Shown here piece by piece: positions 57 through 25,632 of a stretch of 25,776 nucleotides of DNA (the stretch's first letter is position 1; each line of letters begins with the position of its first letter). The notes beneath the pieces are model-generated. The model made no database searches. It was not told where the DNA came from and was given only the letters and a program-made list of their open reading frames with translations. A program made the position numbers and the translations under genes. Source of the stretch: Deltaproteobacteria bacterium (GTDB taxonomy: Bacteria; SAR324; NAC60-12); contig JAYOTF010000042.1 of assembly GCA_038150265.1 (NCBI GenBank), forward strand, positions 1 through 25,776. The letters run 5' to 3'.

Positions 57-836
57 ATGTCTTCGCCGATTTCCCCTTTCATCGATCTTGCGACCACGGA
101 TCAGGGCATCTACCAGACCCTCTCTCAGGTCCGTCAGCTGGACCAGCAAATTGACACCGCCCGCGCCGCGCTGGATCAGCAACTCCGCGAGTGCGAATCC
201 TTGCAGAAGCAGCACGATACCCTGCAGCAGCAGAGCACCGAGCTGAAGGGCAAGATTGCGCTTCAGGACGATTTCATCAACAAGCTGGAAACCCAGGTTC
301 CGCTCATCCGGAATGAAAAGGAATTTGTCGCCAGCAAGAAGCAGCTCGAAGAAGGCCGCAAGCACCGGGGCCAGATTGAAGAGGTGCAGCTGGAGATTGA
401 AATCCGCCGCGAAGAGATCGCCGAGCGCCTCAGCACCCTCCGGAGTGCCGCAGAGGCGATGCAGTCGGATTTTGAAAGCCAGACCGCAGAACTGCAGCAG
501 CAGCGGGACGCCCTGCAGTCCGGACTGGATGAGCTGCACGCGCAGCAGCAGGTGCTTCTGGAAAAGATTCCGGCCCGCATCCGGAAGTTTTACGAGAAGT
601 TCCTGGAGCGCGGACAGACCAAACCGATCTGCGCAGTGTCCAAGTCTGACCCCACCAAAAAAGGCGCCTCGGGCGAGTGGGGCTGCACCGGTTGCAACAT
701 GGTCATTCCTCCGCAGCTGGTGAATGAGATGATTGCCGATCCGGTGACCCCGAAAAACTGCCCCCACTGCCAGCGGTTGCTCTTCCTGCCGCCAGAGGTT
801 TCTGAGCCGGAAGCGTCTGAAACGGAATGCGCCTGA
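57..836 (+). CDS. Coiled-coil protein with C-terminal C4 zinc ribbon (DUF164/CT398/HP0958-like)
   Basis: Long Q/E/L heptad-rich helical region followed by CTGCNMVIPPQ...CPHCQRLL. GGAG at 47-50 favours ATG 57 over ORF-track start 45. Confidence 0.85.
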   Translation: MSSPISPFIDLATTDQGIYQTLSQVRQLDQQIDTARAALDQQLRECESLQKQHDTLQQQSTELKGKIALQDDFINKLETQVPLIRNEKEFVASKKQLEEGRKHRGQIEEVQLEIEIRREEIAERLSTLRSAAEAMQSDFESQTAELQQQRDALQSGLDELHAQQQVLLEKIPARIRKFYEKFLERGQTKPICAVSKSDPTKKGASGEWGCTGCNMVIPPQLVNEMIADPVTPKNCPHCQRLLFLPPEVSEPEASETECA

Positions 837-1120
837 GCCCCTGGTGGGGCGCCTCCCTGCTGGGGCTGACGGCCTGTGCCCCAACGGCGCCGGAGAAGCT
901 CTACCCGTACCAGCCGGTGCGGGAAGCCGACTACCTCTGCCGCCTGGCGTACACCGAGCCCTATGACCAGAATCAGGCCTGGACCCGGAAGCGTCCGGTG
1001 ATGGTGGTGGTCCATGCTCAGCAGGCCACCGTGTACTTTGAAAATGACCAGACCCAGAACCTTCCCCTGGAGCCAGGGCTGGTCATTCCTCCGGGAACGT
1101 ATCCCTGTCCGCAGGGCTAG
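827..1120 (+). CDS. Small putative lipoprotein, unknown function
   Basis: MRLSPWWGASLLGLTAC: basic N-terminus, hydrophobic stretch, lipobox LTA-C. Overlaps upstream gene by 10 nt and fills the gap to the convergent gene. Confidence 0.6.
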   Translation: MRLSPWWGASLLGLTACAPTAPEKLYPYQPVREADYLCRLAYTEPYDQNQAWTRKRPVMVVVHAQQATVYFENDQTQNLPLEPGLVIPPGTYPCPQG

Positions 1121-2457
1121 ACGTTCAGGAGCAGGTACTCCCGTTCCCAGGTGCTGATGACCTTGTAGAAGGCCTCAAACTCGCTCCGTTTGATGGCGCA
1201 GTACACCTTCACAAATTTCTCTCCAAACAACTCCTGCAGCTTTTCGGCATCCTCCATCTCCCGGAGGGCCTCTTCCAGACTGCGGGGCAGCTCAAAGTCA
1301 AACTCGTAGGCGCTCCCCCGGACGGGTTCCGTGGGGGTCAGTCCTTCAATGATGCCGAGCAGTCCGCAGCCCAGGCTGGTGGCAATGGCGAGGTACGGGT
1401 TCACATCGGCGCCAGCAAGCCGATTTTCCACACGGCGGTTGGCTGCTTCACTGACGGGAACCCTCAAGCCGACGGTTCGGTTGTCCACGCCCCACTGCAC
1501 ATTGATCGGAGCGGAGTTGTCCGGGTAGATGCGCCGGTAGGAGTTGACGTTGGGGCCGAGCATGGGCATGGCCTGGGGCAGGTACTTCTGCAGACCGGCG
1601 ATGTAGGAAAGGAACTCGGGGGAGTTGTTGCCGTTCTCCTTGGAGAAGAGGTTCTTGCCGGTCTTCTTGTCGACCACGGACTGGTGAATGTGCAGCGAGC
1701 TTCCGGGCTGGTCGGACATCGGCTTGGCCATGAAGGTCGCATAGACCTTGTGCCGGAAGGCGGTCTCGCGCATGGTCCGTTTGAAGAGGTACACGTGATC
1801 CGCCAGCCGCATCGGGTCCCCATGGAGGAAGTTGATCTCCATCTGGGCGCTTCCGGCCTCATGCGTCAGGGCATCAATGTCCAGCTCCTGAGCCTCGCAG
1901 TACTCGTACATGTCCTCAAAGATCGGGTCAAACTCATTGAGCGCGTCAATTCCGTAAAACTGCCCTGTGGCTTCCGGGCGTCCGGAGCGACCGACAGGCG
2001 GCGAGAGCGGGTAGTCGGGATCCTTGTTGATTTTGGTGAGGTAAAATTCCAACTCCGGAGCGACCACAGGCACCAGGTTGCGCTCTTCATACATCCGGAG
2101 GATGCGTCGCAGCAGGTTCCGGGGAGAAAGCTCCACAGGCATGCCATCGTGGTGAAAGCAGTCGTGGATGACCTGAGCCGTGGGCTCATCCACCCAGGGG
2201 ACCAGGCAGATGGTGGCCGCGTCTGGCTGAAGCTGCATGTCGATCTCTGCCGGATCCACCCGGTAGAGGTCGTTGTAGTCCAGCCACTGGCCGGTCACGG
2301 TTTGAAGGAAGACGGCTTCCGGAAGCCGGAGGCCTTCGTTTTTGAGGAACTTGCGGGCAGGCATGATTTTGCCGCGAGCGATTCCTGTGATATCAGGAAT
2401 GAGGCACTCGACCTCGCTGATCTTGTGCTCAGCAATCCATTGTTCAATGGAGTTCAT
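1117..2457 (-). CDS. Glutamine synthetase family protein, gamma-glutamyl-polyamine/amine ligase (PuuA/PauA-like)
   Basis: PDITGIARGK, APELEFYL, HEAGSAQMEIN, ATFMAKP, GSSLHIHQS, NSYRR, DNRTVGLRVP, RVENRLAGADVNPYL and ISTWEREYLL motifs. Confidence 0.85.
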   Translation of the reverse strand: MNSIEQWIAEHKISEVECLIPDITGIARGKIMPARKFLKNEGLRLPEAVFLQTVTGQWLDYNDLYRVDPAEIDMQLQPDAATICLVPWVDEPTAQVIHDCFHHDGMPVELSPRNLLRRILRMYEERNLVPVVAPELEFYLTKINKDPDYPLSPPVGRSGRPEATGQFYGIDALNEFDPIFEDMYEYCEAQELDIDALTHEAGSAQMEINFLHGDPMRLADHVYLFKRTMRETAFRHKVYATFMAKPMSDQPGSSLHIHQSVVDKKTGKNLFSKENGNNSPEFLSYIAGLQKYLPQAMPMLGPNVNSYRRIYPDNSAPINVQWGVDNRTVGLRVPVSEAANRRVENRLAGADVNPYLAIATSLGCGLLGIIEGLTPTEPVRGSAYEFDFELPRSLEEALREMEDAEKLQELFGEKFVKVYCAIKRSEFEAFYKVISTWEREYLLLNV

Positions 2458-2583
2458 AGTTCACCTGTAAGGTCAATCAAGCGGTAAGACCCTAACGATA
2501 AACCAGTTTTTGCACAGAAAACAAGGGGGTGCCCCAAAAAGGGCTCTGGAGGAAGCAGGACTCAAGGGGAGAGGAAGGGCGCC

Positions 2584-2607
2584 TTCAGGCTCCGGAAGGA
2601 GCCTGAA
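2584..2607 (-). terminator. Perfect 10-bp hairpin just 3' of the flagellin stop (terminator or 3' stabiliser)
   Basis: TTCAGGCTCC-GGAA-GGAGCCTGAA; no clear U-tract after it on the minus strand. Confidence 0.55.
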
Positions 2608-2618
2608 ACCCACCTCCA

Positions 2619-4205
2619 TCAGCGGATGAGCTGGAGGACGGACTGAGGACGCTGGTTGGCCTGAGCAAGCATCGCCTGGCTGGCAGAGAGCTGGATCTGC
2701 TCCCGGGCCAGGTTCGACATCTGCTCTGCGACGTCGGCGTCTCGCAGGCTGGATTCGGCTCGGACCGAATTTTCGTTGGCCACCTGCATCAGGTTCGAGG
2801 TCCGCTGCACCCGGTTCTTCTGGAAGGCTCCGACGTCAGCCCGCATTTCGGCGACCTCGTCAATGGCCTTGGTGATCACACGGCTGGCATCCACGGCGCC
2901 CTGTGTGGTGGTCACGTCAATGTCGGCGAGGCTCCGGAAGCCGCTCTTGTTGTCCACTCCAAGGGCCATGCGGTTGGTCCGGACGTCAGGCAGCGAGTAG
3001 GTGGTCAGCTTCTCCTTGGAGCCCAGCAGGAACTGCGGGGACTGCTGGGAGATGTGCAGGTAGCCATCCACCATGCCCTGGCGGATGCCTTCCGGTTGCA
3101 CCTGAACCAGCTCCACCGAAGTGACGGCTCCGTTCTCATCGTAAGTGAACTTTTCCTCAAATCCGACATCCAGGTCAAAGCGAACCACCGCGCCTTCCGC
3201 CTCAATGCCGGTGCCGCCGGTGAGGAGTTGGCCTTTGCCAATGGCCTGCTCACCGTTGAAGGTGCCCTGGACGTCCTTGCCCAGCGTGCAGCGGTCAGCA
3301 ATGTTGACCTTGTCGGTGATCAGTCCCGGCATGGTGCAGGAGACGCTGAAGCGTGGGTCGCTTCCGTACTGCTTGTGCTGCAGCACCAGCAGGCCGTTTT
3401 CGCTGAACCACGCATCCACGGGAACCCCGGCTTCATCAAGGGCCTTCTGCAGGTGCACCCCCACGACCGAGCGGATCTGCTCCGAGACGTTGTCCGGGTT
3501 GTAGTTGTCCGGATTGTCGTAGTAGCTGTTGAGGATCTGAGTCAACTCCCGGCCCACGTCACCGCGTCGGGTGTCCATCTCGGCAACCTTGCCCTGCTCC
3601 TGAACGGTAATCTGGAAGCCCTCTCCAATGCTTTCAAGGGTCAGCGGAAGCTTCCCGACCTTGTAGGACTTGGAGGCGACCTGGGTGATGTCGATCTCGT
3701 ACCCCTGCACCGGAGAGACGCCGGTTTCTGCTGATGCCTCGAGGAAGGTCAGGTGGTCGCCAACGGTCACCCCATTGACGCCGCGGCTGCCGTCCAGCAG
3801 TTTGTTCTCCCCAAAGCTGGTGCTCCGGGCGATGTTGTTGATTGAGCCCATCAGGTACTCGAGCTCCATCTGATCCGCGCCCAGGGTGTCTGGGTCATTG
3901 GCGGCTTCGTTGGCCGCATGGATGGTGATCTGCTTCATGCGGGTGAGGATGCCACTGATCTCCGAGAGCGCGCCCTCAGCCGTCTGAAGCATCGACACCG
4001 AGGCCTCATTGTTGCGGCTGGCCTGGTTCAGGGCGGAGATCCGACCTCGCATTTTTTCCGAGGCAATCAGAGTGGAAGGTCCGTCCATGGCCTTCGTGAT
4101 CGCTTCCCCGGAACTGAGCTTGCCGATGGTGTTTTGAACCGCCTGGTGCTGTTCATTGGCACGCCTCATGACGTTTAGAGCCAGCGGGTTGTTCTTGATG
4201 ATCAT
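2619..4205 (-). CDS. fliC: Flagellin (528 aa, large variable central domain)
   Basis: N-terminal KLSSG...SMLQTAEGALSEI...AAN and C-terminal RADVGAFQKNR...AESSLRDADVA...QAMLAQANQRPQSVLQLI flagellin helices. Confidence 0.92.
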   Translation of the reverse strand: MIIKNNPLALNVMRRANEQHQAVQNTIGKLSSGEAITKAMDGPSTLIASEKMRGRISALNQASRNNEASVSMLQTAEGALSEISGILTRMKQITIHAANEAANDPDTLGADQMELEYLMGSINNIARSTSFGENKLLDGSRGVNGVTVGDHLTFLEASAETGVSPVQGYEIDITQVASKSYKVGKLPLTLESIGEGFQITVQEQGKVAEMDTRRGDVGRELTQILNSYYDNPDNYNPDNVSEQIRSVVGVHLQKALDEAGVPVDAWFSENGLLVLQHKQYGSDPRFSVSCTMPGLITDKVNIADRCTLGKDVQGTFNGEQAIGKGQLLTGGTGIEAEGAVVRFDLDVGFEEKFTYDENGAVTSVELVQVQPEGIRQGMVDGYLHISQQSPQFLLGSKEKLTTYSLPDVRTNRMALGVDNKSGFRSLADIDVTTTQGAVDASRVITKAIDEVAEMRADVGAFQKNRVQRTSNLMQVANENSVRAESSLRDADVAEQMSNLAREQIQLSASQAMLAQANQRPQSVLQLIR

Positions 4206-4268: not shown

Positions 4269-4295
4269 ACATCGGCAATTCCGGACATTTCTTTA
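4269..4295 (-). promoter_or_regulatory. Sigma28 (FliA) promoter of flagellin
   Basis: Minus strand TAAA-N15-GCCGATGT versus consensus TAAA-N15-GCCGATAA. Confidence 0.85.
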
Positions 4296-4368: not shown

Positions 4369-4472
4369 TTCCGGAACAGTTCGAATTCTTTCCCTCACCA
4401 GGAACCCCTGGAAGTAGCGGAGCCTCCTCCTGAGCCCCTGACTCCCAAGGTTCCCAAGACATACGGTTCCTC

Positions 4473-5489
4473 ATGGCTGCTCCCGCTCCGATGCGCATTG
4501 AGCCGCTGGGTTTTCCCTGGCAAACGGCTGATCCCTTCCTCTTCTGCGTCTACCACCTCGATTTCTACCCAGCCGGTAACGCGGAGCTGGGTCCGGAGGC
4601 CTCGTTACGGGGGCGGGACCTCGGACAGGATTTTGCCGGAATTGACGGCTGGCGGATGTATCACGGACAAAAAGTCCCCGGCTTCCCGGTGCACCCCCAC
4701 CGCGGGTTTGAAACCGTGACGGTGGTCCGGAAAGGGCTGGTGGACCACGCCGACTCACTGGGCGCCGCCGGACGCTATGGCGGAGGGGATGTGCAGTGGC
4801 TGACGGCTGGAGCCGGCATCCAGCACTCCGAAATGTTCCCCCTCCTCCAGCGCATTGGCGCCAACACCCTGGAGTTGTTTCAGATCTGGCTCAACCTGCC
4901 GAAGCGCAACAAGATGGCCGACCCGCACTTCAAGATGTTCTGGCGAGACCAGATCCCGGTGCAGCGGCTGCACGATGGCTTTGGCCGTAGCGTGGTCGTG
5001 ACGCAGTACGCAGGCGCCCTGGAGGCCACTCCGGCCCTGGCGCCTCCTCCGGATTCGTGGGCGGCCGAGCCGGAAAACGAGGTGGCAATTTGGGTGCTGG
5101 AGCTGGAGCCCCATGCCACCTGGACGCTTCCGGAGGTTCGGTCGGGCGTCAACCGGCGGCTTTACCTTTATGAAGGAGACACCGTCACCCTCAACGAACA
5201 GCCTCTGCCGGTGAACCACATGGCTGAAGTCCCGGAAGCCCCCCTCACGCTGACCAACGGAGAGGGCTTCTCCCGCCTGCTGCTGCTGCAGGGACGTCCC
5301 ATTGGCGAACCCGTCACGCAGTACGGCCCCTTCGTCATGAACACGCGCGCCGAGATCCAGCAGGCCTTTGGCGACTACCAGCGGACGCAGTTTGGCGGGT
5401 GGCCCTGGGACCGTCCGGACCCGATTCATGGAACCGCCCCCACCCGTTTTGCGCGACATGCGAACGGAGAAGAGGAGCATCCGGAGTAA
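4473..5489 (+). CDS. Pirin family protein (bicupin)
   Basis: DPFLFCVYH, GFPVHPHRGFETVT, DHADSLG, GDVQWLTAGAGIQHSE, FQIWLNLP and EPVTQYGPFVMNT. Confidence 0.93.
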   Translation: MAAPAPMRIEPLGFPWQTADPFLFCVYHLDFYPAGNAELGPEASLRGRDLGQDFAGIDGWRMYHGQKVPGFPVHPHRGFETVTVVRKGLVDHADSLGAAGRYGGGDVQWLTAGAGIQHSEMFPLLQRIGANTLELFQIWLNLPKRNKMADPHFKMFWRDQIPVQRLHDGFGRSVVVTQYAGALEATPALAPPPDSWAAEPENEVAIWVLELEPHATWTLPEVRSGVNRRLYLYEGDTVTLNEQPLPVNHMAEVPEAPLTLTNGEGFSRLLLLQGRPIGEPVTQYGPFVMNTRAEIQQAFGDYQRTQFGGWPWDRPDPIHGTAPTRFARHANGEEEHPE

Positions 5490-5609: not shown

Positions 5610-7457
5610 ATGAGCAGCACCGACCTAGTTGTGGACCTCCCCGAAATCCGGTTTGTCGTCAACGAGTGGCTCCGGGTGGCACAGCTCAGTGAGCAGGAGC
5701 GCTACCAGGCCTTTGACGCGGAAACCGTGGACCTGATGCTCCAGGAGTCTGCCACCTTTGCCACCGAAGTGGTGGCGCCAACCCGACAGGAAACGGACCG
5801 CCAGGGCTCATGGATGGAAGACGGCCGGGTCAAGGTGGCGGACTGCATGAAAACACCGTACCGCCAGGCCTATGAGCTGGGCTGGGGCTCGATCACCAGC
5901 GATCCGGAATACGGGGGGCAGGGCGCGCCATCGACCCTCGGGCTGGCGGTCAATGAAGGCCTGATTGGGGGCAACCAGGCGGTCTCGTCCTTCTTCGGAC
6001 TGACGGAAGGCTGCGCACGGCTGATCCTCTCCTTCGGGACGGAAGCGCTGAAGCGCAAGTACGTGCCTCACATGCTGTCCGGACGCTTCAATGGGACAAT
6101 GTGCCTCAGCGAGCCGCAGGCCGGTTCCGATGTGGGCGCAGCCACCACAACGGCAGAGCCGCAAGACGACGGGACCTACCTCATCAAGGGGACCAAGGTC
6201 TGGATCTCCAACGGCGACAGCGACCTGGTGGAAAACACCATCCACGCCGTGCTGGCCCGCATCAAGGGCGCTGGCCCTGGAACCGGCGGCCTGAGCCTCT
6301 TCCTCGTCCCACGGTTGCTGGTCAACGAAGACGGCTCCCTTGGCGAGCCCAATGACGTGGGGGTGGGCTCCATTGAGCACAAGATGGGCCTCCATGGAAG
6401 CCCAACCTGTGTGATGAACTTCGGGGAGGCCGGACACTGCCGAGGCTGGCTGCTGGGCCAGGAGCACAAGGGCATGTCCGAGATGTTCCAGATGATGAAC
6501 GAAGCCCGGCTGGCCACCGCTGCCCTGGGGCTGGGGCTGGCCAGTGCCGCGCACCAGAATGCCCTCTCCTATGCGAAGGAGCGGCTGCAGGGCTCCCACA
6601 TTTCGCAGATGCGGGTTCCGGATGCGCCTCGGGTGGCCATCGTGGAGCACCCGGCGGTGCGCTTCAACCTCATGCAGATGCGGGCCCGGGTGGAAGCCAT
6701 GCGCGCCCTGCTGTATGGCACCACCTTTGAGCTCGATCAGGTGCATCAGGCCTCCTCTCCGGAAGCCGCCAAACCGCATCAGGACCTGGTGGAGCTGCTC
6801 ACACCGATGTGCAAGGGGTTCTGCACCGAGACGGGCATTGAGACCATCAACATCGGCATCCAGGTGCTCGGAGGCGTGGGCTACACTCAGGACTTCCCCC
6901 TCGAACAGCTCTTCCGAGACGCCCGGGTCACGGCCATCTATGAAGGGACCACCGACATTCAGGCCCTCGACCTCGTGGGCCGGAAGATGACGGCTCACAA
7001 CGGCGCCCTGTTCATGAACCTCCTCACGCGCTTCGGGGAGTTCATTGGCGCCCACCAGTCTCACCCCCGGCTGGGACCGCTCTGCAGCACCTGGGAAGCC
7101 TCGTGCAGCACCCTCTCGGACCTCGCCTTGAGTGCCCAGAAGGTGGTCCTGACCCGAGGCATGGAAGGGGTGGCGCTTTATGCAACACCGTTCCTGATGT
7201 TCACCTCGGCCGTTACCGCCTCCTGGTTCCTCCTGCAGCAGGGGCGGGTGGCCTCCGATCGGCTGGACGAGCTGGCCCAGGCCCATGGCGCCGATCCAGA
7301 CGATGAGGCCTTCCTCCGGGAACACGAAGACGCCCGCTTTTACAGCACCAAGCTCCGGACCGTCCGGTTCTTCCTGGAAAGCGTGGTGCCACAATTCGAA
7401 GCGCCCCTCGCTGGCGCCCGGCAACAGAACTACGACCCGCTCGACATCCTGCTCTAA
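5610..7457 (+). CDS. Acyl-CoA dehydrogenase (long ~600 aa DmdC/FadE5-like subfamily)
   Basis: GTMCLSEPQAGSDVG, IKGTKVWIS, EHKMGLHGSPTC, MFQMMNEARL, IYEGTTDIQALDLVGRK; GAGG RBS before ATG 5610. Confidence 0.9.
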   Translation: MSSTDLVVDLPEIRFVVNEWLRVAQLSEQERYQAFDAETVDLMLQESATFATEVVAPTRQETDRQGSWMEDGRVKVADCMKTPYRQAYELGWGSITSDPEYGGQGAPSTLGLAVNEGLIGGNQAVSSFFGLTEGCARLILSFGTEALKRKYVPHMLSGRFNGTMCLSEPQAGSDVGAATTTAEPQDDGTYLIKGTKVWISNGDSDLVENTIHAVLARIKGAGPGTGGLSLFLVPRLLVNEDGSLGEPNDVGVGSIEHKMGLHGSPTCVMNFGEAGHCRGWLLGQEHKGMSEMFQMMNEARLATAALGLGLASAAHQNALSYAKERLQGSHISQMRVPDAPRVAIVEHPAVRFNLMQMRARVEAMRALLYGTTFELDQVHQASSPEAAKPHQDLVELLTPMCKGFCTETGIETINIGIQVLGGVGYTQDFPLEQLFRDARVTAIYEGTTDIQALDLVGRKMTAHNGALFMNLLTRFGEFIGAHQSHPRLGPLCSTWEASCSTLSDLALSAQKVVLTRGMEGVALYATPFLMFTSAVTASWFLLQQGRVASDRLDELAQAHGADPDDEAFLREHEDARFYSTKLRTVRFFLESVVPQFEAPLAGARQQNYDPLDILL

Positions 7458-13621: not shown

Positions 13622-13650
13622 TTGAGCCCTCCGGAAAAACCCTCTATAAA
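13622..13650 (+). promoter_or_regulatory. Sigma70 promoter of the rpsB-tsf operon
   Basis: TTGAGC-N17-TATAAA preceded by an A-tract, ~150 nt upstream of rpsB. Confidence 0.7.
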
Positions 13651-14557: not shown

Positions 14558-14669
14558 CCCCCGTTTTTCACCTCAGCTGCCCGGTACCGTCCGGGCGTTT
14601 GCTTCCGGAAGCGCCTGCCCCTGCAGCCTTCCGGATTCCCTCAACTTACCTTAATGACACCAGAATAAA

Positions 14670-16816: not shown

Positions 16817-18070
16817 ATGCTCGCGACGCTCCTTTACTCCATCTGGCCCTATCAGATCTTCAAGTCGGTGGTGTTCCGCAGCGGCATGACCTTCTTGACG
16901 GTGTACTGGATCGTCATCTGGGGCATGCCCTGGCTCATCCACCAGCTCCGGCACCGTGGAATGACGTCGGACTTCAAGGCGGCGACCCCTGGCGTGAAGC
17001 CCTACACGGGCGCGCCTCCCATCATGGGGGGCAGCATGCTGGTGCTGGGCATCCTGGTGGCGACCATCCTCTGGACCGACCTGAACCAGTACATTGTCGC
17101 CCTCATGGCGATCATGGTCAGCTTTGCGATCATTGGCGGCCTCGATGACTGGGCCAAGGTGGGACACCGTCGCCGGGTCGACTCCGGAGGCGCCGCCAGG
17201 AAGAGCTATGCCGAAAAGGCCGACGGCATCAGCGGACGCTTCCGGCTCGGAGCCGAATTTGCGGTCGCCTTGCTGATTGTGCTGGGCCTGTACCTGTTTG
17301 TGGACATTGACGGGCACCTCTCGGTTCCGTTTGTGCCCATGAAGACCTGGTACCCGTACCTGCCGCGGTTTGTCTTCATTCCGCTGATGGTGTTCATCAT
17401 TGTCGGAGGGGCCAATGCCGTGAACCTGACAGACGGGATGGACTCGCTGGCCACGGTGCCGCTGATCACCTGTGCGCTCTTCGTCGGGGCCGTCGCCTAT
17501 GTTGGAGGAGACGAGGAGTTTGCCACCCGCCTCCGGATTCCCCACCTGACGCATGACATCAAGGAGCTGACGATCCTGGCGGCCGGAGTCACCAGCGCCG
17601 GGTTGGCGTTCCTCAAGTTCAATGCCCCCCCTGCCCTGATCTACATGGGAGACCTGGGGGCGCTGGCACTGGGGAGCCTGGTGTCGGCCATGTTCATCTT
17701 CGTCAAGGCCGAGCTGTTCCTGCCCATCGTGGGAGGCATCTTCGTCTTTGCCGCCCTGTCCACGCTCATTCAGCGCGGATTCTTCAAGCTGGTGCTGCGG
17801 CTGAAGGGCCGCTCCGCGGCAGAGCGCTACCGCTTCTTCCTGCGGGCACCGTATCACCACCACCTGCAGCGACTCTGGACCTATTCCGACAAGCAGGATG
17901 TGACGTCTGTGTGGCTGATGCTCCTCAAGCGCATCGGCATCAATCCGGTTCCGGATGAAAACAAGTTGCTGAACCCTCATGAGGTGAACAGTCGGGTGAT
18001 CTGGCACGTTCACCTGAAGTCGATCTGGTTGTTTGTCATCACCCTCATCATCTACTTCAAAGTCCGCTAA
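16817..18070 (+). CDS. mraY: Phospho-N-acetylmuramoyl-pentapeptide transferase, divergent with insertions
   Basis: PIMGG, IGGLDDW, NAVNLTDGMDSLA, FLKFNAPPALIYMGDLGAL, APYHHH. Confidence 0.85.
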   Translation: MLATLLYSIWPYQIFKSVVFRSGMTFLTVYWIVIWGMPWLIHQLRHRGMTSDFKAATPGVKPYTGAPPIMGGSMLVLGILVATILWTDLNQYIVALMAIMVSFAIIGGLDDWAKVGHRRRVDSGGAARKSYAEKADGISGRFRLGAEFAVALLIVLGLYLFVDIDGHLSVPFVPMKTWYPYLPRFVFIPLMVFIIVGGANAVNLTDGMDSLATVPLITCALFVGAVAYVGGDEEFATRLRIPHLTHDIKELTILAAGVTSAGLAFLKFNAPPALIYMGDLGALALGSLVSAMFIFVKAELFLPIVGGIFVFAALSTLIQRGFFKLVLRLKGRSAAERYRFFLRAPYHHHLQRLWTYSDKQDVTSVWLMLLKRIGINPVPDENKLLNPHEVNSRVIWHVHLKSIWLFVITLIIYFKVR

Positions 18071-18088: not shown

Positions 18089-18826
18089 GTGCGTTTTGAA
18101 AACCAAACCGCGTTGATCACTGGTGCCGGACGTGGCATCGGCAAAACCATTGCCCTGCTGCTGGCCCAGGAAGGCGCAGACATCGCGTTCACCGATCTGG
18201 ATGAGGCCGTCAACGCCGAAACCCGCCAGGAGATCGAAGCCCTGGGCCGCCGGTGCCTCAGCTACCAGGCGAATGTGACCGACCCTGACGCCGTGAACAC
18301 GATGGTCGCCGACCTCCTGGAGCAGTGGGGGAAGATCGACATCCTGGTCAACAATGCCGGCATCACCCGCGACAACCTCTTCATGCGCATGAAGCCGGAG
18401 GAGTGGTCTCAGGTGATGGACGTCAACCTCAACGCCGTCTTTCACATGACGAAAGCCGTGGTCCGTCCCATGATGAAGCAGCGCGCCGGACGCATCATCA
18501 GCATCTCCTCCGTGGTGGGCTTCTCCGGAAATCCGGGACAGGTCAACTACAGCTCCACCAAGGCCGCGCTGGTGGGCTTCTCCAAGTCCCTGGCCCGCGA
18601 GGTCGGCTCCCGGGGCATCACGGTCAACCTGGTGGCGCCCGGATTCATTGAAACCGCCATGACCGACAAGCTCAACGAGGAGCAGCAGCAGCAGATCCTG
18701 CAGCAGGTCCCGCTGGGCCGCATGGGCGCTCCGGACGACATTGCCGAGGCGGTGGCCTTCCTGGCGTCGCCACAGGCGGGATACGTGACGGGCACGACGC
18801 TGCACGTCAACGGCGGGATGTTCTAA
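18089..18826 (+). CDS. fabG: 3-oxoacyl-ACP reductase
   Basis: TGAGRGIG, LVNNAGITRD, NYSSTKA, VAPGFIET; GTG start with GGAGG RBS. Confidence 0.96.
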   Translation: MRFENQTALITGAGRGIGKTIALLLAQEGADIAFTDLDEAVNAETRQEIEALGRRCLSYQANVTDPDAVNTMVADLLEQWGKIDILVNNAGITRDNLFMRMKPEEWSQVMDVNLNAVFHMTKAVVRPMMKQRAGRIISISSVVGFSGNPGQVNYSSTKAALVGFSKSLAREVGSRGITVNLVAPGFIETAMTDKLNEEQQQQILQQVPLGRMGAPDDIAEAVAFLASPQAGYVTGTTLHVNGGMF

Positions 18827-19195: not shown

Positions 19196-20434
19196 ATGCG
19201 TAAACGCGTTGTTGTGACCGGGGTCGGTTGTGTCTCCCCCTTGGGTAACAGTGTGCCTGAGGCGTGGGACGCCTGTCGAAACGGACGCTCCGGAATCAGC
19301 CGGATCACCCGCTTTGACCCTGAACCCTATCGCGCCCAGATCGCTGGGGAGGTTCGGAACTTCAAGCTGCCCAGTGTGATTCCGCCGAAGGAAGCGAAGA
19401 AGATGGACCTGTTCATCCACTACTCCATTGGCGCCACTCAGGAGGCCCTGGCGGATGCGAATCTGGAAATCACGGAAGACCTTGAGGAAGAGGTCGGGGT
19501 GTCCCTGGGAGTCGGCATCGGCGGATTGGGCTGCATTGAGCGCTACTCGGAAGTCCTGGCCGCCAATGGCCCGGGGCGCATCAGCCCCTTCTTCATTCCC
19601 ATGACCCTGAGCAACCTGGCGCCCGGGCAGATCTCGATGATCTTCCGGACCCGGGGGTACAACGCGTGTTCGGTCTCGGCCTGCACCTCGTCCAACCATG
19701 CCATTGGCACCGCCGCCCGGACCATTGAGCGCGGAGACGCGAAGGTGATGATTGCCGGAGGCGCGGAGTCGAGCATCACCCCCCTGGGCATTGGAGGCTT
19801 TGCCGCCATGCATGCCCTGAGCACCCGGAACGATGAGCCCGAGAAGGCCAGCCGCCCCTATGATCAGGGACGCGACGGCTTTGTGATGGGAGAGGGGTCG
19901 GGGATCCTCATCCTGGAGGAGCTCGAGTTTGCCAGGGCCCGTGGCGCCCGCATCTATGGCGAGGTCATCGGGTACGGCTTCAGCTCCGATGCCCACCACA
20001 TCACGTCGCCCTCCACCGAAGGACCGGCCCGCGCCATGCGTCTGGCGCTCAAGGATGCGAGCCTGGAGCCCGAGGCGATCGACTACGTCAATGCGCACGG
20101 GACGTCCACGCCGGCAGGAGACATCAATGAACTCCGGGCGATGAAGCTGGCCCTGGGCGAGAACCACGCCCGCACGGTCAGCATCAGCTCCACCAAGTCC
20201 ATGACCGGACACCTGCTCGGAGCCGCTGCTGCCATTGAGGCCGTGTTCTGCATCAAGGCGCTGCAAGAGGATTTTGTCCCACCGACCATCAACATTGACG
20301 ACCTGGATCCGGAATGCGACCTGGACGTCACCCCCAACGTGGGACGCAGCGTGCCGCTGACCACAGCCATGTCCAACGCCTTTGGCTTTGGAGGCACCAA
20401 CGCTTCGGTCATTTTCCGGAAGTACAGCGAGTAA
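19196..20434 (+). CDS. fabF: Beta-ketoacyl-ACP synthase II
   Basis: SACTSSNH, YVNAHGTST, STKSMTGHLLGAA, SNAFGFGGTN. Confidence 0.96.
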   Translation: MRKRVVVTGVGCVSPLGNSVPEAWDACRNGRSGISRITRFDPEPYRAQIAGEVRNFKLPSVIPPKEAKKMDLFIHYSIGATQEALADANLEITEDLEEEVGVSLGVGIGGLGCIERYSEVLAANGPGRISPFFIPMTLSNLAPGQISMIFRTRGYNACSVSACTSSNHAIGTAARTIERGDAKVMIAGGAESSITPLGIGGFAAMHALSTRNDEPEKASRPYDQGRDGFVMGEGSGILILEELEFARARGARIYGEVIGYGFSSDAHHITSPSTEGPARAMRLALKDASLEPEAIDYVNAHGTSTPAGDINELRAMKLALGENHARTVSISSTKSMTGHLLGAAAAIEAVFCIKALQEDFVPPTINIDDLDPECDLDVTPNVGRSVPLTTAMSNAFGFGGTNASVIFRKYSE

Positions 20435-20502: not shown

Positions 20503-22320
20503 ATGCACAGCAGCAGTACTGAATACCGCGCCGACCGTCGTGACCTGCAGTTCATGATCAATGAAGTCTACGACACGGCCGCGCTCTGCACCTTCCCCGC
20601 CTACCAGGAGTTTGATCCGGAGATGCTGGACATGGTGGTCAAGGAAGCCGCGACCTTTTCGGAGCAGGTCATTGCGCCGCTGAATCAGGAGGCCGACCGT
20701 GTGGGCAGCAAGGCGGTGGAGGGAAAGGTGGTCACCCCAGCGGGCTTCAAGCAGGCCTGGCACCAGATGGGAGAAGGGGGCTGGCTGGCCCTCAACCTGA
20801 GCCCGGAGCACGGGGGGCAGGGGCTTCCGGAACTGGTCACCACTGCCGCCCGTGAGACCCAGATTGCCGCCAGCCAGGGCTTCTGCATTGCCAACGTCCT
20901 CACCACCGGAGCCGCCAACCTGATCCTCACGTTTGGAAGTGACCAGCAGAAGCGGGACTACTGCGAAAAGATGCTTTCAGGCGAGTGGGGAGGAACGATG
21001 TGCCTCACCGAGCCGCAGGCCGGCAGCGCCGTGGGTGACATCACGACGACTGCGACCCCCCAGGGCGATGGCAGCTACCTCATCAAGGGCAACAAGATCT
21101 ACATCACCTATGGCGAGCATGACATGACGGACAACATCGTCCACCTGCTCCTTGCCAAAACTCCGGACAGCCCGGCTGGAACGAAGGGCATCAGCCTCTT
21201 CATTGTGCCGAAGGTGCGCCTGGATGGCACCCCGAACGATGTCACCCTCGTGCATGTGGAAAACAAGATGGGCCTGCATGGCTCTCCCACCTGTGCCCTG
21301 TCGTTTGGGGAACAGGGCGCCTGCTACGGCTACCTGCTGCAGGCGGAGAATGCCGGGATGGCGCAGATGTTCCAGATGATGAACGAGGCCCGCCTCTTTG
21401 TGGCCCTGCAGGGACTCGGAGGAGCGGCCGCCGCGCTGCAGAACGCCTGGGCCTATGCCAATGAGCGTCCCCAGGGGCCGTCGGCACGTCCCGATGCCCA
21501 GCCGGGGGACAAGGCTCTGATCATCGAGTACCCAGACGTCCGGAGGATGCTGATGCACATGAAGAGCGTCACCGAAGGCCTGCGGGGCCTGTGCTACGCG
21601 GCGTCCTGGTACAGCGACTGGGCGCATGAAGGGCCCGAGGAGAGCCGTGAGACCTACCAGAACCTGCTCGACCTGCTCATTCCGATCTGTAAGTCCTTTG
21701 CCACCGACCAGGGCTTCGAGGTCGGAGTGATGGGGCAGCAGGTGCTGGGTGGGGTGGGGTACCTCAAGGACTTCCCCCTGGAGCAAAACGTCCGGGACCA
21801 GAAGATCGCCTCCATCTATGAGGGCACGAACGGCATTCAGGCCCTGGACCTGGTGGGCCGGAAGCTCACGATCAAGGAAGGAGCCCTGCTGAAGTCCCTC
21901 GCTCAGGAGCTGGCCTTCTTTGAGCACAACCCGGCACCTGCGGCGCTGACGAAGCAGGTGGAGGAGTGGGAGAGCTACCGGGACCTGATGATGGAGAGCA
22001 TTGCCGCGCTCCGGACGCTGGGGGAGCGTGGGGGCAAGCCGGGCTACATCCTCTATGCCAGCAACCTGCTGGCGCTGATGGGCGACGTCCTCTGTGCCTT
22101 CTACCTGCTCAAGCAAGCGGCGGTGGCCCAGACCAAGTGGGAGGCCCTGGTGGAGGGAAAGGACGCGGACGCGGTGCTGGCCGGAAGTGAAGAAGCCCAG
22201 TTTTACTGGAACAAGCTCAAGACCACCGAGTTTTACCTCTACAGCGTGTTGCCCCGGTCCCTGTCTCAGGCCCGGATCATCCGCAATGCGAACCTCAGTC
22301 CTCTGGAGGCCTGGCTCTAA
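20503..22320 (+). CDS. Acyl-CoA dehydrogenase (second paralogue, same long subfamily)
   Basis: GTMCLTEPQAGS, ENKMGLHGSPTC, MFQMMNEARL, IYEGTNGIQALDLVGRK; AAGGA RBS before ATG 20503. Confidence 0.9.
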   Translation: MHSSSTEYRADRRDLQFMINEVYDTAALCTFPAYQEFDPEMLDMVVKEAATFSEQVIAPLNQEADRVGSKAVEGKVVTPAGFKQAWHQMGEGGWLALNLSPEHGGQGLPELVTTAARETQIAASQGFCIANVLTTGAANLILTFGSDQQKRDYCEKMLSGEWGGTMCLTEPQAGSAVGDITTTATPQGDGSYLIKGNKIYITYGEHDMTDNIVHLLLAKTPDSPAGTKGISLFIVPKVRLDGTPNDVTLVHVENKMGLHGSPTCALSFGEQGACYGYLLQAENAGMAQMFQMMNEARLFVALQGLGGAAAALQNAWAYANERPQGPSARPDAQPGDKALIIEYPDVRRMLMHMKSVTEGLRGLCYAASWYSDWAHEGPEESRETYQNLLDLLIPICKSFATDQGFEVGVMGQQVLGGVGYLKDFPLEQNVRDQKIASIYEGTNGIQALDLVGRKLTIKEGALLKSLAQELAFFEHNPAPAALTKQVEEWESYRDLMMESIAALRTLGERGGKPGYILYASNLLALMGDVLCAFYLLKQAAVAQTKWEALVEGKDADAVLAGSEEAQFYWNKLKTTEFYLYSVLPRSLSQARIIRNANLSPLEAWL

Positions 22321-22527: not shown

Positions 22528-23982
22528 ATGCCGGACTGGACTCTGCAACTGCGTGAGGCTGGATCCGGACTGCACCCCCTCTGGGCGCTGCTTCTGCCTC
22601 TGGGAGGCGCCACGCTGCTGCTGCGGCAGCGGCACTGGCTGTTGGGGGGACTGCTCCTGTGTGCCAGCCTGGGCGCCCTGAGGCCCTACCTGCTTCTGCC
22701 CACCACCCTGCCGGCCCTCCAGCAGGCGGCATCCGGAACCCTGTGGGTCCGGGGAACGCTCCGAGAGGCCACGGAAGCCGCCGGGAGGTTTCACCTGCAC
22801 CTGCAGCACGTCGAGTTCGCCTCTCCCACTCACGTGTGGACCTTTCCGGAAGCCGAGGTCTCCTTTCCCTCCCGAGGTCGGCGGGGGAACTTCTTCCGGG
22901 GCCGGGAGCTGCAGCTGGATGGACACGCCGGCGTCATGGGGCTCCGGGCGCTTCGGCTGCAGGTGGAGTGGCAGCAGGCGTACTACCGAACCGCCTCCCA
23001 GCCTCTGGTGGGGTGGGCGCGTCAGCGGGCAACGTGGCGCCTGCAGCTGGAGCAGCGCATCCGCTACTACCTGCACGGTCCTGCGCTGGCGGTGTTCCTG
23101 CCCCTCACCCTGGGCCTGCGGGCTCATGCTCCCAGGGTGCGGCAGCTGTTTCAGGAAACCGGCATGGCGCACCTGCTGGCCATCAGCGGCCTGCACATGG
23201 GGCTCCTGTACGGGCTGCTGCTGCTGAGCCTCCGGGGCCTGGGGCGGGGCTCTTCCTGGTTGCTGCAGCAACGCTGGTTTCGTCCGGGCACCCAGGGACT
23301 GGCGCTGCTGGGGCTGTGGGGGTACGTGCTGCTGCTGCAGAACCCCACCCCGGCCTTCCGGGCGGTGCTGATGCTGACCCTGTGGAGCCTGCCGCAGGCC
23401 CTCGGGTGGCGTCCTCCCGCGTTTCATACCCTGCTGCTGACCGCGTCGCTGCTGCTGCTGGCCGATCCCACTCAGGTGGACGACCTCTCCTTTCAGCTCT
23501 CCTTTCTGGCGGTTTTCGGAATCCTCTGGGGCCTCCCCGGACACTGGACGCCTCGACGTCCGGGCCGGCGGTGGGGGGCCTGGCTGTGGAACAGCACCTG
23601 GGTCACCGGGTGCGTGCTGCTCTTCATTGGTCCGGTGCTGCTGCAGGCCTTTGGCGCCGTGGCGCTCGAATCCCTGTGGCTGAACCTGATCCTCATCCCG
23701 CTGCTCGCTGCCGTGGTGCTGCCGGTGTGCCTGCTGGCGCTGCTGGTGGGGGCGGCTTCGCTGGGGCAGCCTCCGGAGGGCTGGCTGGAGCAGCAGGCGT
23801 TTGCCGGAGCCGACTTCGTGCTCCGGCAGTGGGTGGCGCTGCTGGAGCACCTGCATGTCTCGGCAGGCGCGGTCCAGCTGACGGTTCCCGAGACCTTTGG
23901 AGGCACGGAGGCGCTGGTTTACTACGCCCTGCTGCTGGGAGTCGGCTGGGGCCTCTGGTGGAGGCGCCCTCCGGCTGATTGA
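22528..23982 (+). CDS. comEC: ComEC/Rec2 family competence protein lacking the C-terminal metallo-beta-lactamase domain
   Basis: FQETGMAHLLAISGLHMG, PAFRAVLM, DLSFQLSFLAV, NLILIP. Confidence 0.85.
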   Translation: MPDWTLQLREAGSGLHPLWALLLPLGGATLLLRQRHWLLGGLLLCASLGALRPYLLLPTTLPALQQAASGTLWVRGTLREATEAAGRFHLHLQHVEFASPTHVWTFPEAEVSFPSRGRRGNFFRGRELQLDGHAGVMGLRALRLQVEWQQAYYRTASQPLVGWARQRATWRLQLEQRIRYYLHGPALAVFLPLTLGLRAHAPRVRQLFQETGMAHLLAISGLHMGLLYGLLLLSLRGLGRGSSWLLQQRWFRPGTQGLALLGLWGYVLLLQNPTPAFRAVLMLTLWSLPQALGWRPPAFHTLLLTASLLLLADPTQVDDLSFQLSFLAVFGILWGLPGHWTPRRPGRRWGAWLWNSTWVTGCVLLFIGPVLLQAFGAVALESLWLNLILIPLLAAVVLPVCLLALLVGAASLGQPPEGWLEQQAFAGADFVLRQWVALLEHLHVSAGAVQLTVPETFGGTEALVYYALLLGVGWGLWWRRPPAD

Positions 23983-24004
23983 TGATCCTGACACGAGCAA
24001 ACAA

Positions 24005-24829
24005 ATGGATGGTTTCCCTTTACAAGAGTGGCTGCCGCTCCTCGGCATCCTCCTGGCGTCCGGGGCCTTTGCCGGTGTGATGGCGGGGTTGCTGGGCGTG
24101 GGCGGCGGCGTGGTCATTGTGCCGGCGCTGCTCTACGCCTTTGACTTCCTGCACTACAACCCGGCGATCACCACGCACCTCGCGGTGGCCACCTCACTGG
24201 CGACCATTGTCCCCACCGCCTTCTCGGCTGCCCGGGCGCATCACCAACGGGGCGCAGTGGAGTTTTCCCTCCTCAAGCGTCTCGCGCCAGGGGTGATGGC
24301 CGGGTCGCTCATCGGAGCCTGGGTGGCGGGAGGCGTGGGAGGCGATGTCCTCAAGGGCGTCTTTGGCGTCATCGCCCTCCTGATGGCCGCGAACCTCTTC
24401 CGGACCCAGGAGCTCATTTTGGGAGAGACGTTGCCCTCGGCGCCCAAAACGGCAGGCAGCATGGGGCTCATCGGGTTCCTGTCGTCGCTCATGGGCATCG
24501 GCGGCGGAACCCTGTTTGTGCCCTTCCTCAGCGCTTTCAGTGTCCCCATTCAAAAAGCCGTGGGCACCTCTTCCAGCCTGGGACTGATGATTGCGCTTCC
24601 CGGAGCCCTGGGGTACATGGCCGTGGGTGCCGATGTGGAAGGCCTTCCGCCCCTCAGCATCGGCTACGTCAGCCTCGTCGGCCTCGCCTGCATGGTGCCC
24701 ATGACCACCCTCTTTGCCCCACAGGGCGCCAAGCTGGCCCACCGGCTGGAAAAGAAGACCCTCAAGCGCTTCTTTGCCGTGTTCCTGGTGGTGATGGCCC
24801 TGCGGATGTTCTGGAAGATGGCGGCCTGA
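24005..24829 (+). CDS. TauE/SafE (TSUP) family membrane transporter
   Basis: Duplicated GLLGVGGG / LMGIGGG motifs, AVATSLA / AVGTSS. Confidence 0.9.
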   Translation: MDGFPLQEWLPLLGILLASGAFAGVMAGLLGVGGGVVIVPALLYAFDFLHYNPAITTHLAVATSLATIVPTAFSAARAHHQRGAVEFSLLKRLAPGVMAGSLIGAWVAGGVGGDVLKGVFGVIALLMAANLFRTQELILGETLPSAPKTAGSMGLIGFLSSLMGIGGGTLFVPFLSAFSVPIQKAVGTSSSLGLMIALPGALGYMAVGADVEGLPPLSIGYVSLVGLACMVPMTTLFAPQGAKLAHRLEKKTLKRFFAVFLVVMALRMFWKMAA

Positions 24830-24886: not shown

Positions 24887-24902
24887 GGAAGATCAGATTG
24901 GC

Positions 24903-24979: not shown

Positions 24980-25042
24980 CCTGCCTTCCCCCCCCCCTTG
25001 AATTCCTGCTTGAACTCCCCCTTGCCTTGCTCAAAAACGGAT

Positions 25043-25275
25043 GGGTGCCCCACCGACACCTGACGTTGGAGCCAAGCCAGTACCTGACGCCTCCCAGATC
25101 TGATGCGGAGCGTCCCCCGCTCTGTTCTTCTTTGAAGGGCCGCACCTTCCGGTTGCCTCGGTCCATCCTCTTGAAACCATCTGCTTTCTGACGGGAGCTC
25201 AGTGAAGGGGCTCCCTGTGTGAGGACATCACATCTCCTGCAGGGGCCTGGCCCGCTCAGGTGGTGGTTGGGGTCA
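25043..25275 (-). ncRNA. ~230-nt rod-like structured RNA, possibly 6S RNA (ssrS)-like
   Basis: Nested inverted repeats 25048-25063/25256-25272, 25071-25078/25244-25251, 25096-25105/25226-25235 and 25137-25149/25204-25215. Two A.C mismatches on plus become G.U on minus. Confidence 0.45.
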
Positions 25276-25382
25276 GTTTCAACCGCAAATTCCTCAATGA
25301 ACCTTGTTTTTCCTCAATAATATCAGTGGTCGTTAATTTCGGTCGGGCCCGTATTTTTGCCGTATTTTTTCAAACGTCTCCC

Positions 25383-25412
25383 TTGACAGTGTGTGCGCTG
25401 GAGGGGTAAATT
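25383..25412 (+). promoter_or_regulatory. Possible sigma70 promoter for the AT-rich ORFs
   Basis: TTGACA-N18-TAAATT. Confidence 0.4.
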
Positions 25413-25509
25413 CCCTTTTTCAGCACCCTCTGCGGAAGGATCCATCCTGATGGGAGGGCAGGTTGGTGAACTGAACGGATTAGGTAATTGTTCATTATCA
25501 GAAGGTATT

Positions 25510-25632
25510 ATGCGTAAATCGATTTTGATTTGTTTTATCGCTATATTGTTTTTTTCCGGATGCTCTGATGATTCCAACTCAGAATCAAACGCATCAAGGA
25601 TATCAGTTAAAACTGTAAATATTGAGTTCTAA
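25510..25632 (+). CDS. Short AT-rich lipoprotein-like ORF (40 aa), possibly a truncated gene
   Basis: MRKSILICFIAILFFSGC lipobox followed by SDDSNSES. Confidence 0.5.
   Translation: MRKSILICFIAILFFSGCSDDSNSESNASRISVKTVNIEF

Follow-up and report, generated by a model that had tools for sequence, protein, structure and literature searches.

TCCGGA copies in the window

The stretch of DNA analysed here (the window, 25,776 nt) is contig C42 of a SAR324 genome (G000, the source genome: 3,393,712 bp in 87 contigs, guanine-plus-cytosine (GC) content 61.2%, completeness 97.78%, contamination 1.59%), and the element under study is the palindromic hexamer TCCGGA. It is a genuine genomic word of the highly iterated palindrome (HIP) kind, beyond codon usage, in a non-cyanobacterial lineage, and neighbouring copies are arranged with a helical period of 10.5 bp whose preferred rotation differs between lineages. 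The gene content of the window was ordinary housekeeping, including rpsB-tsf-pyrH-frr, fabG/fabF, acyl-CoA dehydrogenases, flagellin, a glutamine-synthetase-like gene and a ComEC-like gene. By exact count 72 copies were present, with start positions running from 307 to 25555, and 100 dinucleotide-preserving shuffles of the window gave 9.21 ± 3.22 copies with a largest value of 21, none (0/100) reaching 72. The copies were distributed over codon phases 0, 1 and 2 as 15, 18 and 31, in genes on both strands, and 8 were intergenic or unassigned; the GC content per 2 kb ranged from 0.60 to 0.68. A sequence-only reading had put the number of sites at about 72 against about 9 expected, in all three phases, on both strands and between genes, with variable flanks. 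The exact count and the shuffles bore this out, 15/15 of its example coordinates were found among the copies, and the flank preference proved weak.

Gene labels were taken from our own calls, no strand was assigned to the palindrome, and presence in relatives (the sister species G002, the congener G001, G013 of another genus, and G003 and G012) was read from alignment where alignable. From the left end of the window, the Zn-ribbon/CT398-like gene carried copies at 307-312, 439-444 and 580-585 in phase 1 and at 519-524 in phase 0. In the glutamine-synthetase-like gene (- strand) they were located at 1981-1986 (phase 0), 2054-2059 (phase 2), 2094-2099 (phase 1) and 2318-2323 (phase 2), followed by an intergenic copy at 2591-2596. 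The flagellin gene (- strand) contained 2933-2938 and 2978-2983 in phase 1 and 3508-3513 in phase 2, and the copies at 4280-4285 and 4370-4375 were intergenic. Phase 2 prevailed in the pirin gene (4592-4597, 5048-5053, 5129-5134, 5414-5419 and 5480-5485), where 4726-4731 was in phase 1. The acyl-CoA dehydrogenase gene carried phase-2 copies at 5903-5908 (present in G001), 6617-6622 and 6758-6763 (present in G013), with 6078-6083 in phase 0 and 7354-7359 in phase 1. The FadB-like gene had 8015-8020 in phase 0, 8752-8757 and 8821-8826 in phase 2 and 9222-9227 in phase 1.

In the MenC/MR-MLE gene (- strand), the phase-0 copy at 9679-9684 stood 31 bp from the next, at 9710-9715 (phase 2); further copies were found at 9839-9844 (phase 2), 9886-9891 and 9922-9927 (both phase 0), 10424-10429 (phase 2, absent in G002), 10517-10522 (phase 2), 10654-10659 (phase 0, absent in G002) and 10698-10703 (phase 1, absent in G002). 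The copy in the UbiA prenyltransferase gene (11387-11392, phase 0) was absent in G002, and that in the PNP oxidase gene (11969-11974, phase 1) was present there. Two open reading frames (ORFs) on the - strand, 12436-12882 and 12879-13535, carried phase-2 copies, the former at 12686-12691 (present in G002) and 12731-12736 and the latter at 13480-13485; 13630-13635 was intergenic. In rpsB, the copies at 14167-14172 (phase 2) and 14208-14213 (phase 1), 41 bp apart, were present in G002, and that at 14275-14280 (phase 2) in G002 and G001. The rpsB-tsf spacer contained intergenic copies at 14604-14609 and 14630-14635, two TCCGGA 26 bp apart within 14604-14635. The copy in tsf (15018-15023, phase 0) was present in G002 and G003, and those in frr at 16248-16253 (phase 2) in G002 and at 16637-16642 (phase 1) in G002 and G001.

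The glycosyltransferase-4 gene carried 17183-17188 (phase 0; present in G002, G001 and G012), 17532-17537 (phase 1) and 17950-17955 (phase 2; present in G001 and G013), and fabG carried 18524-18529 (phase 0) and 18730-18735 (phase 2). In fabF the copies were at 19289-19294 (phase 0, present in G001), 19644-19649 (phase 1), 20308-20313 (phase 2, present in G001 and G012) and, at the 3' end, 20415-20420 (phase 1, present in G001). The second acyl-CoA dehydrogenase gene contained phase-2 copies at 20616-20621 (present in G001), 20826-20831 (present in G001 and G012) and 21162-21167, and phase-1 copies at 21539-21544 and 22010-22015. Finally, the ComEC-like gene had 22564-22569 and 22732-22737 in phase 0 and 22845-22850 and 23772-23777 in phase 2, the last present in G001, and 24399-24404 and 25555-25560 fell in regions without a gene call.

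Genome-wide enrichment and its independence from codon usage

Across the source genome TCCGGA was counted 9,711 times (2.86 per kb, one per 350 bp), which made it the commonest hexamer on one strand; the runners-up CCGGAG/CTCCGG and CCGGAA/TTCCGG overlap with it by five letters. The observed/expected ratio was 8.7, 7.6, 3.95, 2.39 and 1.22 under Markov models of order 0, 1, 2, 3 and 4, and at each of these orders the word ranked first among all hexamers by z-score (363 down to 27.8), an outlier genome-wide. The low ratio at order 4 arises because the signal is already contained in the pentamers TCCGG and CCGGA. No other hexamer palindrome of this genome exceeded 3.2 times its expectation, and the composition-matched palindrome AGGCCT was counted 1,639 times.

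Genes of the source genome were called with a simple codon-statistics caller of our own, which gave 2,731 rough calls covering 87% of the genome. TCCGGA density was 2.93 per kb in coding DNA and 2.40 per kb in non-coding DNA, the latter against 0.31 expected (7.8-fold). The 8,611 coding copies were distributed as 2,016, 2,366 and 4,229 over phases 0, 1 and 2, and all three phases were enriched 3-5-fold. The enrichment did not vanish when synonymous codons were shuffled within genes with the proteins kept: 2,072 ± 44 copies were obtained (maximum 2,142 in 20 shuffles), which left a 4.2-fold excess, and a shuffle of codon order gave 1,262 copies, a 6.8-fold excess. Base composition, codon usage or amino-acid content could have generated the word passively, in that the order-4 model accounts for most of the count and words rich in TC and GA are frequent throughout. 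Non-coding DNA was as rich as coding DNA and the excess persisted over a protein-preserving shuffle, and a codon or composition bias is therefore refuted; with the first rank at every order and the far lower count of AGGCCT, this explanation retains virtually no probability.

Among the 20,918 positions where the protein permits the word, 8,611 (41%) carried it (34%, 38% and 49% by phase), and occupancy reached 76-82% in some tripeptide contexts. A four-fold codon followed by Pro and then Asp or Glu was written T-CCG-GA in 47.4% of cases vs 10.8% in control contexts. The implied odds ratio over the synonymous shuffle, about 6.4 (log about 1.85), would correspond to a weak pressure comparable to codon bias, and it is a lower bound because the codon pool of the shuffle is itself inflated by TCCGGA. 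The flanks displayed a weak and symmetric preference, GC(T)-TCCGGA-(A)GC, which was the same in non-coding DNA. Half-sites were moderately enriched (TCCGG 3.1-fold; T before CCGG in 44% of cases vs a base frequency of 19%), and the two half-sites reinforced one another about two-fold by our calculation.

Density dropped only near start codons (about 1-1.9 per kb from -50 to +25), and the intergenic observed/expected ratio was 7.2-10.4 across tandem, divergent and convergent spacers. Long-range placement was approximately Poisson, with a mean of 14.5, a variance of 16.5 and a minimum of 3 copies in 5-kb windows, a coefficient of variation (CV) of gaps of 0.98 and a largest gap of 3,611 bp. Even spacing without long gaps was ruled out, as the gaps were exponential. 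No motif-free island was found among the 5-kb windows of the source genome, and an island on contig C45 with a retron-type reverse transcriptase and a candidate methylase, described below, had normal density.

Distribution of TCCGGA among relatives

The family of the source genome was scanned in 45 genomes, with AGGCCT as the composition-matched control. The trait was graded within this one SAR324 family and absent in some genera. Genus g1, which comprises the source genome, G001 and G002, contained 7,726-9,711 copies per genome, and genus g12 contained 5,254-7,675 copies, 14-30 times the control. Enrichment was moderate in g4, g6, g3 and g10 (2.6-8.4 times control), and TCCGGA was at about the control level in g2 (9/9 genomes), g5, g8 and g9. 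In genus g11, 14/18 genomes were enriched, the 4 non-enriched ones being 51-59% complete; richness within this genus (G018, G031-G046, G012) ranged from 123-165 per Mb (G034, G042, G043) to about 2,000 per Mb (G035, G037). A neighbouring family, sampled in 12 genomes, was mostly without enrichment. In a 787-kb sample of G013 (GC content 56.4%), TCCGGA was again the top hexamer, at 7.6-fold.

Helical phasing of neighbouring copies

Distances between pairs of copies in the source genome peaked near 30-31, 41-42, 51-52 and 61-63 bp, with troughs at 11-17, 21-26 and 34-40 bp. The best period was 10.5 bp, with a power of 39.7 vs a maximum of 23.5 in 1,000 permutations, and neighbouring copies kept to the preferred helix rotation at separations of about 20 bp up to over 100 bp. 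Pairs 6-50 bp apart were depleted overall to 0.75, and g(d) was 0.56 below 27 bp.

This period is word-specific and holds at the DNA level. None of 15 control hexamers was periodic at 10.2-10.8 bp, the highest power (5.5) belonging to the overlapping word CCGGAG. The signal was spread over 1,458 genes, was found in both random halves of the genes (16.3 and 24.8), and survived a null model with amino-acid-context-specific occupancy (35.5; 0/150 nulls reached it). The 462 pairs that do not fall inside a single gene displayed it too, at an unchanged phase (1/1,000 Poisson nulls); for the 291 purely non-coding pairs, which are too few, 110/1,000 Poisson nulls reached the signal. Tandem repeats were rejected as the source, only 23/4,867 pairs having similar flanks. 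The periodicity of protein alpha-helices (3.5-3.6 residues) was rejected likewise: the signal survived the context-specific null, and such a source is also contradicted by the pairs not within one gene, by pairs in different codon phases and by G013, where orthologous gene sets have the reverse phase. A periodic A/T pattern around the copies was not significant (power 4.5 vs a 99th percentile of 5.6), and this counts against a code based on general curvature.

Lineage-specific rotation

The relatives were compared through samples of 0.79-1.02 Mb, the smallest being that of G013 (0.79 Mb) and those of G002 and G001 each amounting to about 1 Mb. The phase was -24 ± 7 degrees in the source genome and, equal to it, -25 ± 14 degrees in G002, where the period was 10.4 bp and the power 12.8 (0/300 nulls). 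In G013 the period was 10.5 bp and the power 11.1-11.6 (0/300 and 0/150 nulls), with a phase of 180 ± 11 degrees.

At spacings of 20-70 bp, whole-turn pairs were observed 405 times against 329.8 expected (1.23) in the source genome and half-turn pairs 270 times against 361.5 (0.75). The corresponding figures were 68/65.9 (1.03) and 45/69.2 (0.65) in G002, and 11/41.9 (0.26) and 75/59.4 (1.26) in G013, while G001 had 26/66.6 (0.39) whole-turn pairs. A model-free count on the raw sequence gave 1.31, 0.43 and 0.28 for the whole-turn quadrant of the source genome, G001 and G013. The quadrants were picked after the spectra had been seen, though the effects are large, and the source genome and G002 are not independent. 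Whole turns are thus favoured in the source genome and its sister G002 and avoided in the congener G001 and in G013; taken together, quadrants and phases indicate that the period is shared and the preferred rotation differs, even within one genus.

When copies shared with G002 were considered, other shared copies filled 29.2% of the in-phase vs 16.1% of the anti-phase permissive positions near them. Species-specific (young) copies near shared ones had no phase bias (17.8%, 56/315, vs 18.4%, 41/223). There is weak evidence in these data for selection keeping phased pairs.

Turnover of copies

The sister species G002 was compared over 755 orthologs, with a median amino-acid identity to the source genome of 90%. 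At amino-acid-conserved positions, 948/1,699 copies (55.8%) were kept in G002, and four-fold sites were 51% identical (36% if saturated). In G001, at 72% identity, four-fold sites were 41.7% identical vs 34.7% if saturated, and TCCGGA was shared at 94/232 occupied positions vs 84/307 empty ones. This near-saturation of synonymous sites, and the 1 ortholog common to the samples, make G001 unsuitable as an outgroup for polarising gains and losses. Partners differed at 1,201/3,097 positions, 825 of them by one letter and mostly through transitions (outer T/C 209, inner C/T 146). Among the alignable window copies, 9/15 were present in G002, 11/30 in G001, 2/27 in G013, 3/25 in G012 and 1/15 in G003. 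Copies are only slightly stickier than ordinary synonymous words, and their turnover is near neutral. In contigs from public runs, 0/40 listed differences (of 1,643) fell within a TCCGGA copy, a result uninformative on polymorphism.

The one-off variants were not depleted: TCTGGA/TCCAGA stood at 2.58 times expectation and at 2.47 times the control in matched codon contexts, and transitions of the central CpG dominated the one-off halo. In E. coli, very-short-patch (VSP) repair by Dcm and Vsr enriches CCWGG; the process depends on a 5-methylcytosine (m5C) methylase together with Vsr, and it leaves the T variants depleted. TCCGGA resembles this system in that repair bias can lift a methylase target above expectation, and is unlike it in that neither gene was found in the source genome and the T/A variant is enriched. 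VSP-type repair was accordingly rejected, with no match to PF00145 or PF03852 and with TCTGGA/TCCAGA enriched where depletion would be expected.

A functionless molecular drive would be a wider form of such bias, in which repair or gene conversion makes TCCGGA from near-cognates faster than mutation destroys it, perhaps modulated face-dependently. Fast turnover and near-neutral positional conservation are what it would produce, and so are the near-Poisson placement (gap CV 0.98), the equal enrichment of coding and non-coding DNA, the graded intensity across genera and the small scaled pressure (log odds ratio about 1.85). A drive acting site by site, however, cannot yield the phasing of copies 20-120 bp apart or a lineage-specific phase. 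Moreover, the one-off variants were not depleted and the CpG-transition variant was enriched, no Vsr or m5C methylase match was found in the source genome, and young copies had no phase bias toward shared ones (56/315 vs 41/223). We therefore give this drive low odds. Biased repair, one of the causes offered by the sequence-only reading, loses ground on the same two points, helical phasing and the enriched T variants.

Methylases, nucleases and other candidate writers or readers

BspEI and Kpn2I cut TCCGGA. Targets of type II restriction-modification systems are normally avoided, and this word is enriched. In the 97.8%-complete source genome no match was found to PF00145 (m5C methylase), PF02384 or PF07669, nor to Vsr (PF03852), MutH (PF02976) or SeqA (PF03925). 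Models of NgoMIV- and Bse634I-type nucleases gave no match, in searches without a positive control. Of the 45 genomes, G006 alone gave matches to histone-fold proteins, and no enriched genome did. In this 12-Mb bin, the histone-fold matches on contigs C7 and C488 (L366, L367) occurred in identical pairs at matching offsets, which suggests duplicated contigs or eukaryotic contamination in the bin.

Two methylase candidates with an SPPY motif were detected in the source genome, on contigs C45 and C51. The first (C45:2844-3620, 258 aa) is a beta-class candidate whose best solved relatives are TTHA0409 and N4-cytosine methylases, and it adjoins a retron-St85-type reverse transcriptase. The surrounding region, outside the window (C45:40-4562; L001 1-3159), consists of the reverse transcriptase (935 aa), then the 258-aa methylase and a 311-aa ORF without family match; it has the appearance of a retron-based defence module partnered by a methylase. 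A full ortholog of the C45 candidate was found only in G001 (71%) and none in the TCCGGA-rich G002 and G013, because of which it was rejected as the cause.

The second candidate (C51:248-1387, L102) stands alone and has permuted motifs, HPxxP and FMGGG first and SPPYPG about 175 residues on. In G002 it is full length (L108 451-2643), with an N-terminus of about 330 residues of Arg/Asp/Glu/Pro-rich repeat. A TerB-domain gene follows this methylase gene. The gene is kept across the order, with identity declining with distance from 93% to 41%. Its SPPY motif was intact in the TCCGGA-poor G003, G014 and G010 and in family f2, and motif IV was degenerate in the enriched genomes G005 (RPPL), G016 (NPPM) and G004 (APPA). 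Its structural model (predicted local distance difference test score, pLDDT, 89.3) resembled Trm11, Dam, DpnM and NNMT about equally, at a template-modelling (TM) score of about 0.4, so that the enzyme could act on DNA or equally on RNA. It is unlikely to be the cause: its presence did not correlate with richness and its motif was degenerate in some enriched genomes.

A methylation-linked explanation would have an unrecognised or unbinned orphan methyltransferase modify TCCGGA, or the CCGG at its centre, with a methyl-dependent process (strand discrimination in repair, fork tracking or self-marking) raising the density. The C51 gene offers a conserved stand-alone candidate whose model resembles Dam and DpnM as well as Trm11, one site per 350 bp is close to the density of GATC in E. 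coli, and central-CpG transitions dominate the halo (TCCAGA at 2.47 times control). Alternate HIPs of cyanobacteria are accompanied by a methylase whose specificity matches the word (Elhai 2015, PMC4390886). Against this stand the missing matches to PF00145, PF02384, PF07669, Vsr, MutH and SeqA, the pattern of the C51 gene, which is intact in poor genomes, degenerate in enriched ones and perhaps an RNA methylase, and the absence of the C45 ortholog from the rich G002 and G013. No methylase that co-varies with TCCGGA was found, and we regard this explanation as unlikely. The orphan methyltransferase that the sequence-only reading had named among its possible causes found no support, as neither SPPY candidate tracks richness.

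Discussion

The helix-phased neighbours suggest that something physical reads the word. A face-dependent relation between neighbours is beyond any process that acts per site, be it mutation bias, VSP-like repair or codon choice, and a binding factor is the most economical inference. We propose that TCCGGA is read by a sequence-specific, two-fold-symmetric and abundant DNA-binding factor and that the pressure on the genome is selection for its binding, with a probability of roughly 0.4. What the data show is a weak genome-wide directional pressure on DNA that writes the word into about 4/10 of the protein-permitted places and equally into non-coding DNA, together with an exclusion of neighbours closer than about 27 bp and a face-dependent relation between copies that is heritable and lineage-specific. 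Single copies come and go about neutrally, and density and local arrangement are maintained. A factor resembling a nucleoid protein, abundant and probably dimeric, may bind the palindrome, and adjacent bound units may attract or hinder each other depending on the helix face. A change in the geometry of the reader or in the sign of cooperativity could then shift the preferred offset between lineages.

Several observations weigh against this binding factor. No reader protein was identified. Phasing was tested in the source genome, G001, G002 and G013 only, and in G001 the periodicity was weak (band power 4.2, reached by 4/300 nulls; phase -137 ± 21 degrees). It would also be unusual for one reader to flip its rotation between congeners. 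Retention in G002 was equal whatever the phase of the nearest neighbour (144/267 in phase vs 92/169 out of phase, 54% vs 54%), and the pair-level retention tests gave only a trend (Fisher p = 0.10, permutation p = 0.067). The Mantel-Haenszel odds ratio for positional conservation was only slightly above that of ordinary synonymous hexamers: 4.44 in the comparison with G002 (rank 128 of 599 hexamers, whose median was 3.0) and 1.70 in that with G001 (rank 16 of 50, median 1.38).

A more specific proposal, possible yet tentative, is that TCCGGA serves as the docking word of a novel abundant chromosome-organising protein of one SAR324 family, with a rotational code whose setting switched, within one genus, from avoiding to favouring whole turns. 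If true, this would provide a natural system for the co-evolution of a nucleoid protein and a whole genome. Chromosome organisation had been one option of the sequence-only reading and fits best among those it offered. Its wider interpretation, a lineage-specific and genome-wide HIP-like word outside cyanobacteria, stands at the DNA level; the cognate orphan methyltransferase and simple biased repair are not supported.

To our knowledge, HIP1 has remained unexplained for about three decades and has been regarded as a cyanobacterial peculiarity. HIP1 is the octamer GCGATCGC, which occurs in cyanobacteria alongside GATC and CGATCG methylases; the word found here is TCCGGA, and CGATCG was under-represented in the source genome (0.40-fold). 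TCCGGA shares with HIP1 and the alternate HIPs its shortness, palindromic symmetry and high GC content, its lineage specificity, and a great excess over the whole genome that spans coding and non-coding DNA and that codon bias does not explain. As for HIP1, selection seems to act on the distribution and not on single copies. It is unlike HIP1 in being a hexamer of SAR324 at about 3 per kb, against an octamer of cyanobacteria at about 1 per kb. HIP1 is reported to have a periodicity of 18-94 kb, and HIP copies to be more conserved between genomes than control words (Xu et al. 2018, PMC5861425). TCCGGA has a helical period of 10.5 bp, its positional conservation is barely above that of controls, and no co-varying methylase accompanies it. 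The lineage-specific rotational offset at 10.5 bp is new here, a feature not reported for HIP1. The word TCCGGA has 0 occurrences in the text of Elhai 2015 (PMC4390886), and a literature search over open-access papers and bioRxiv returned nothing about an excess of TCCGGA or about palindromes in SAR324.

The system thus represents a counterpart of HIP1 outside cyanobacteria, denser and with a different word, and it makes the identity of a face-sensitive reader, in place of that of a methylase, the central question. Two contrasts available in nature could help to track the reader down: rich and poor species within one genus, and opposite phases within another. In metagenomics, the word marks its lineage strongly enough to assist binning and to reveal foreign DNA.

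Two further comparisons concern how the word could be read. In the Dam/GATC system of Enterobacteria, with its SeqA and MutH, SeqA binding requires paired sites on one helix face, and GATC is hardly enriched. TCCGGA is likewise a short palindrome every few hundred bp that would be read genome-wide; it differs in that the source genome has no MutH or SeqA match and the preferred face varies by lineage. Phased A-tracts and dinucleotide periodicity in prokaryotes have periods of 10-11 bp and are tied to DNA shape or wrapping, unlike the TCCGGA period, which belongs to one hexamer (0/15 controls) and has no periodic A/T around it.

Words for DNA traffic offer another comparison. Uptake signal sequences and DNA uptake sequences (USS/DUS) and Chi are non-palindromic words of 5-12 nt that depend on orientation, are recognised by an uptake receptor or by RecBCD/AddAB, and are not helically phased. 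Like them, TCCGGA is short, lineage-specific and over-represented in the core genome, and it might be a self-recognition word, an USS/DUS-like uptake signal or a Chi-like signal for competence, recombination or nuclease control. A density of about 3 copies per kb is similar in magnitude to that of known uptake sequences, and the window itself contains a ComEC-like competence gene. HIP1 has been linked to transformation and type IV secretion in recent work (10.1101/2024.09.10.611283, PMC13756078). TCCGGA is, however, its own reverse complement, in contrast to the longer or oriented, non-palindromic uptake and Chi words; a 6-mer offers little specificity, helical phasing would be unexpected and no receptor candidate was seen. 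A role in self-recognition is accordingly quite improbable.

Viral contigs and other observations

Three IMG/VR viral contigs, L294, L323 and L266 (110 kb, 6 kb and 249 kb), had 2.8-3.5 TCCGGA per kb over 6 kb, at 10-16 times the expectation from their own composition, a figure that is inflated because the loci were chosen for two TTCCGGAA. A link to TCCGGA-rich phages was rejected, the best protein identity of the dense viral contigs to the source genome being only 48%.

The source genome shuns words containing TA: CTAG stood at 0.05, TATA at 0.07, TTAG at 0.10, and ACTAGT and CATATG both at 0.03 of expectation. Despite this avoidance, TACTAC/GTAGTA (629 copies) and TAGTAG/CTACTA (400 copies) were 5-10 times above the Markov-1/2 expectation. 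In the window, the fabF ORF (19196-20434) and the ORF of the second acyl-CoA dehydrogenase (first start at 20314) overlap by 121 bp, from 20314 to 20434, and the true start of the latter probably lies further downstream than 20314.

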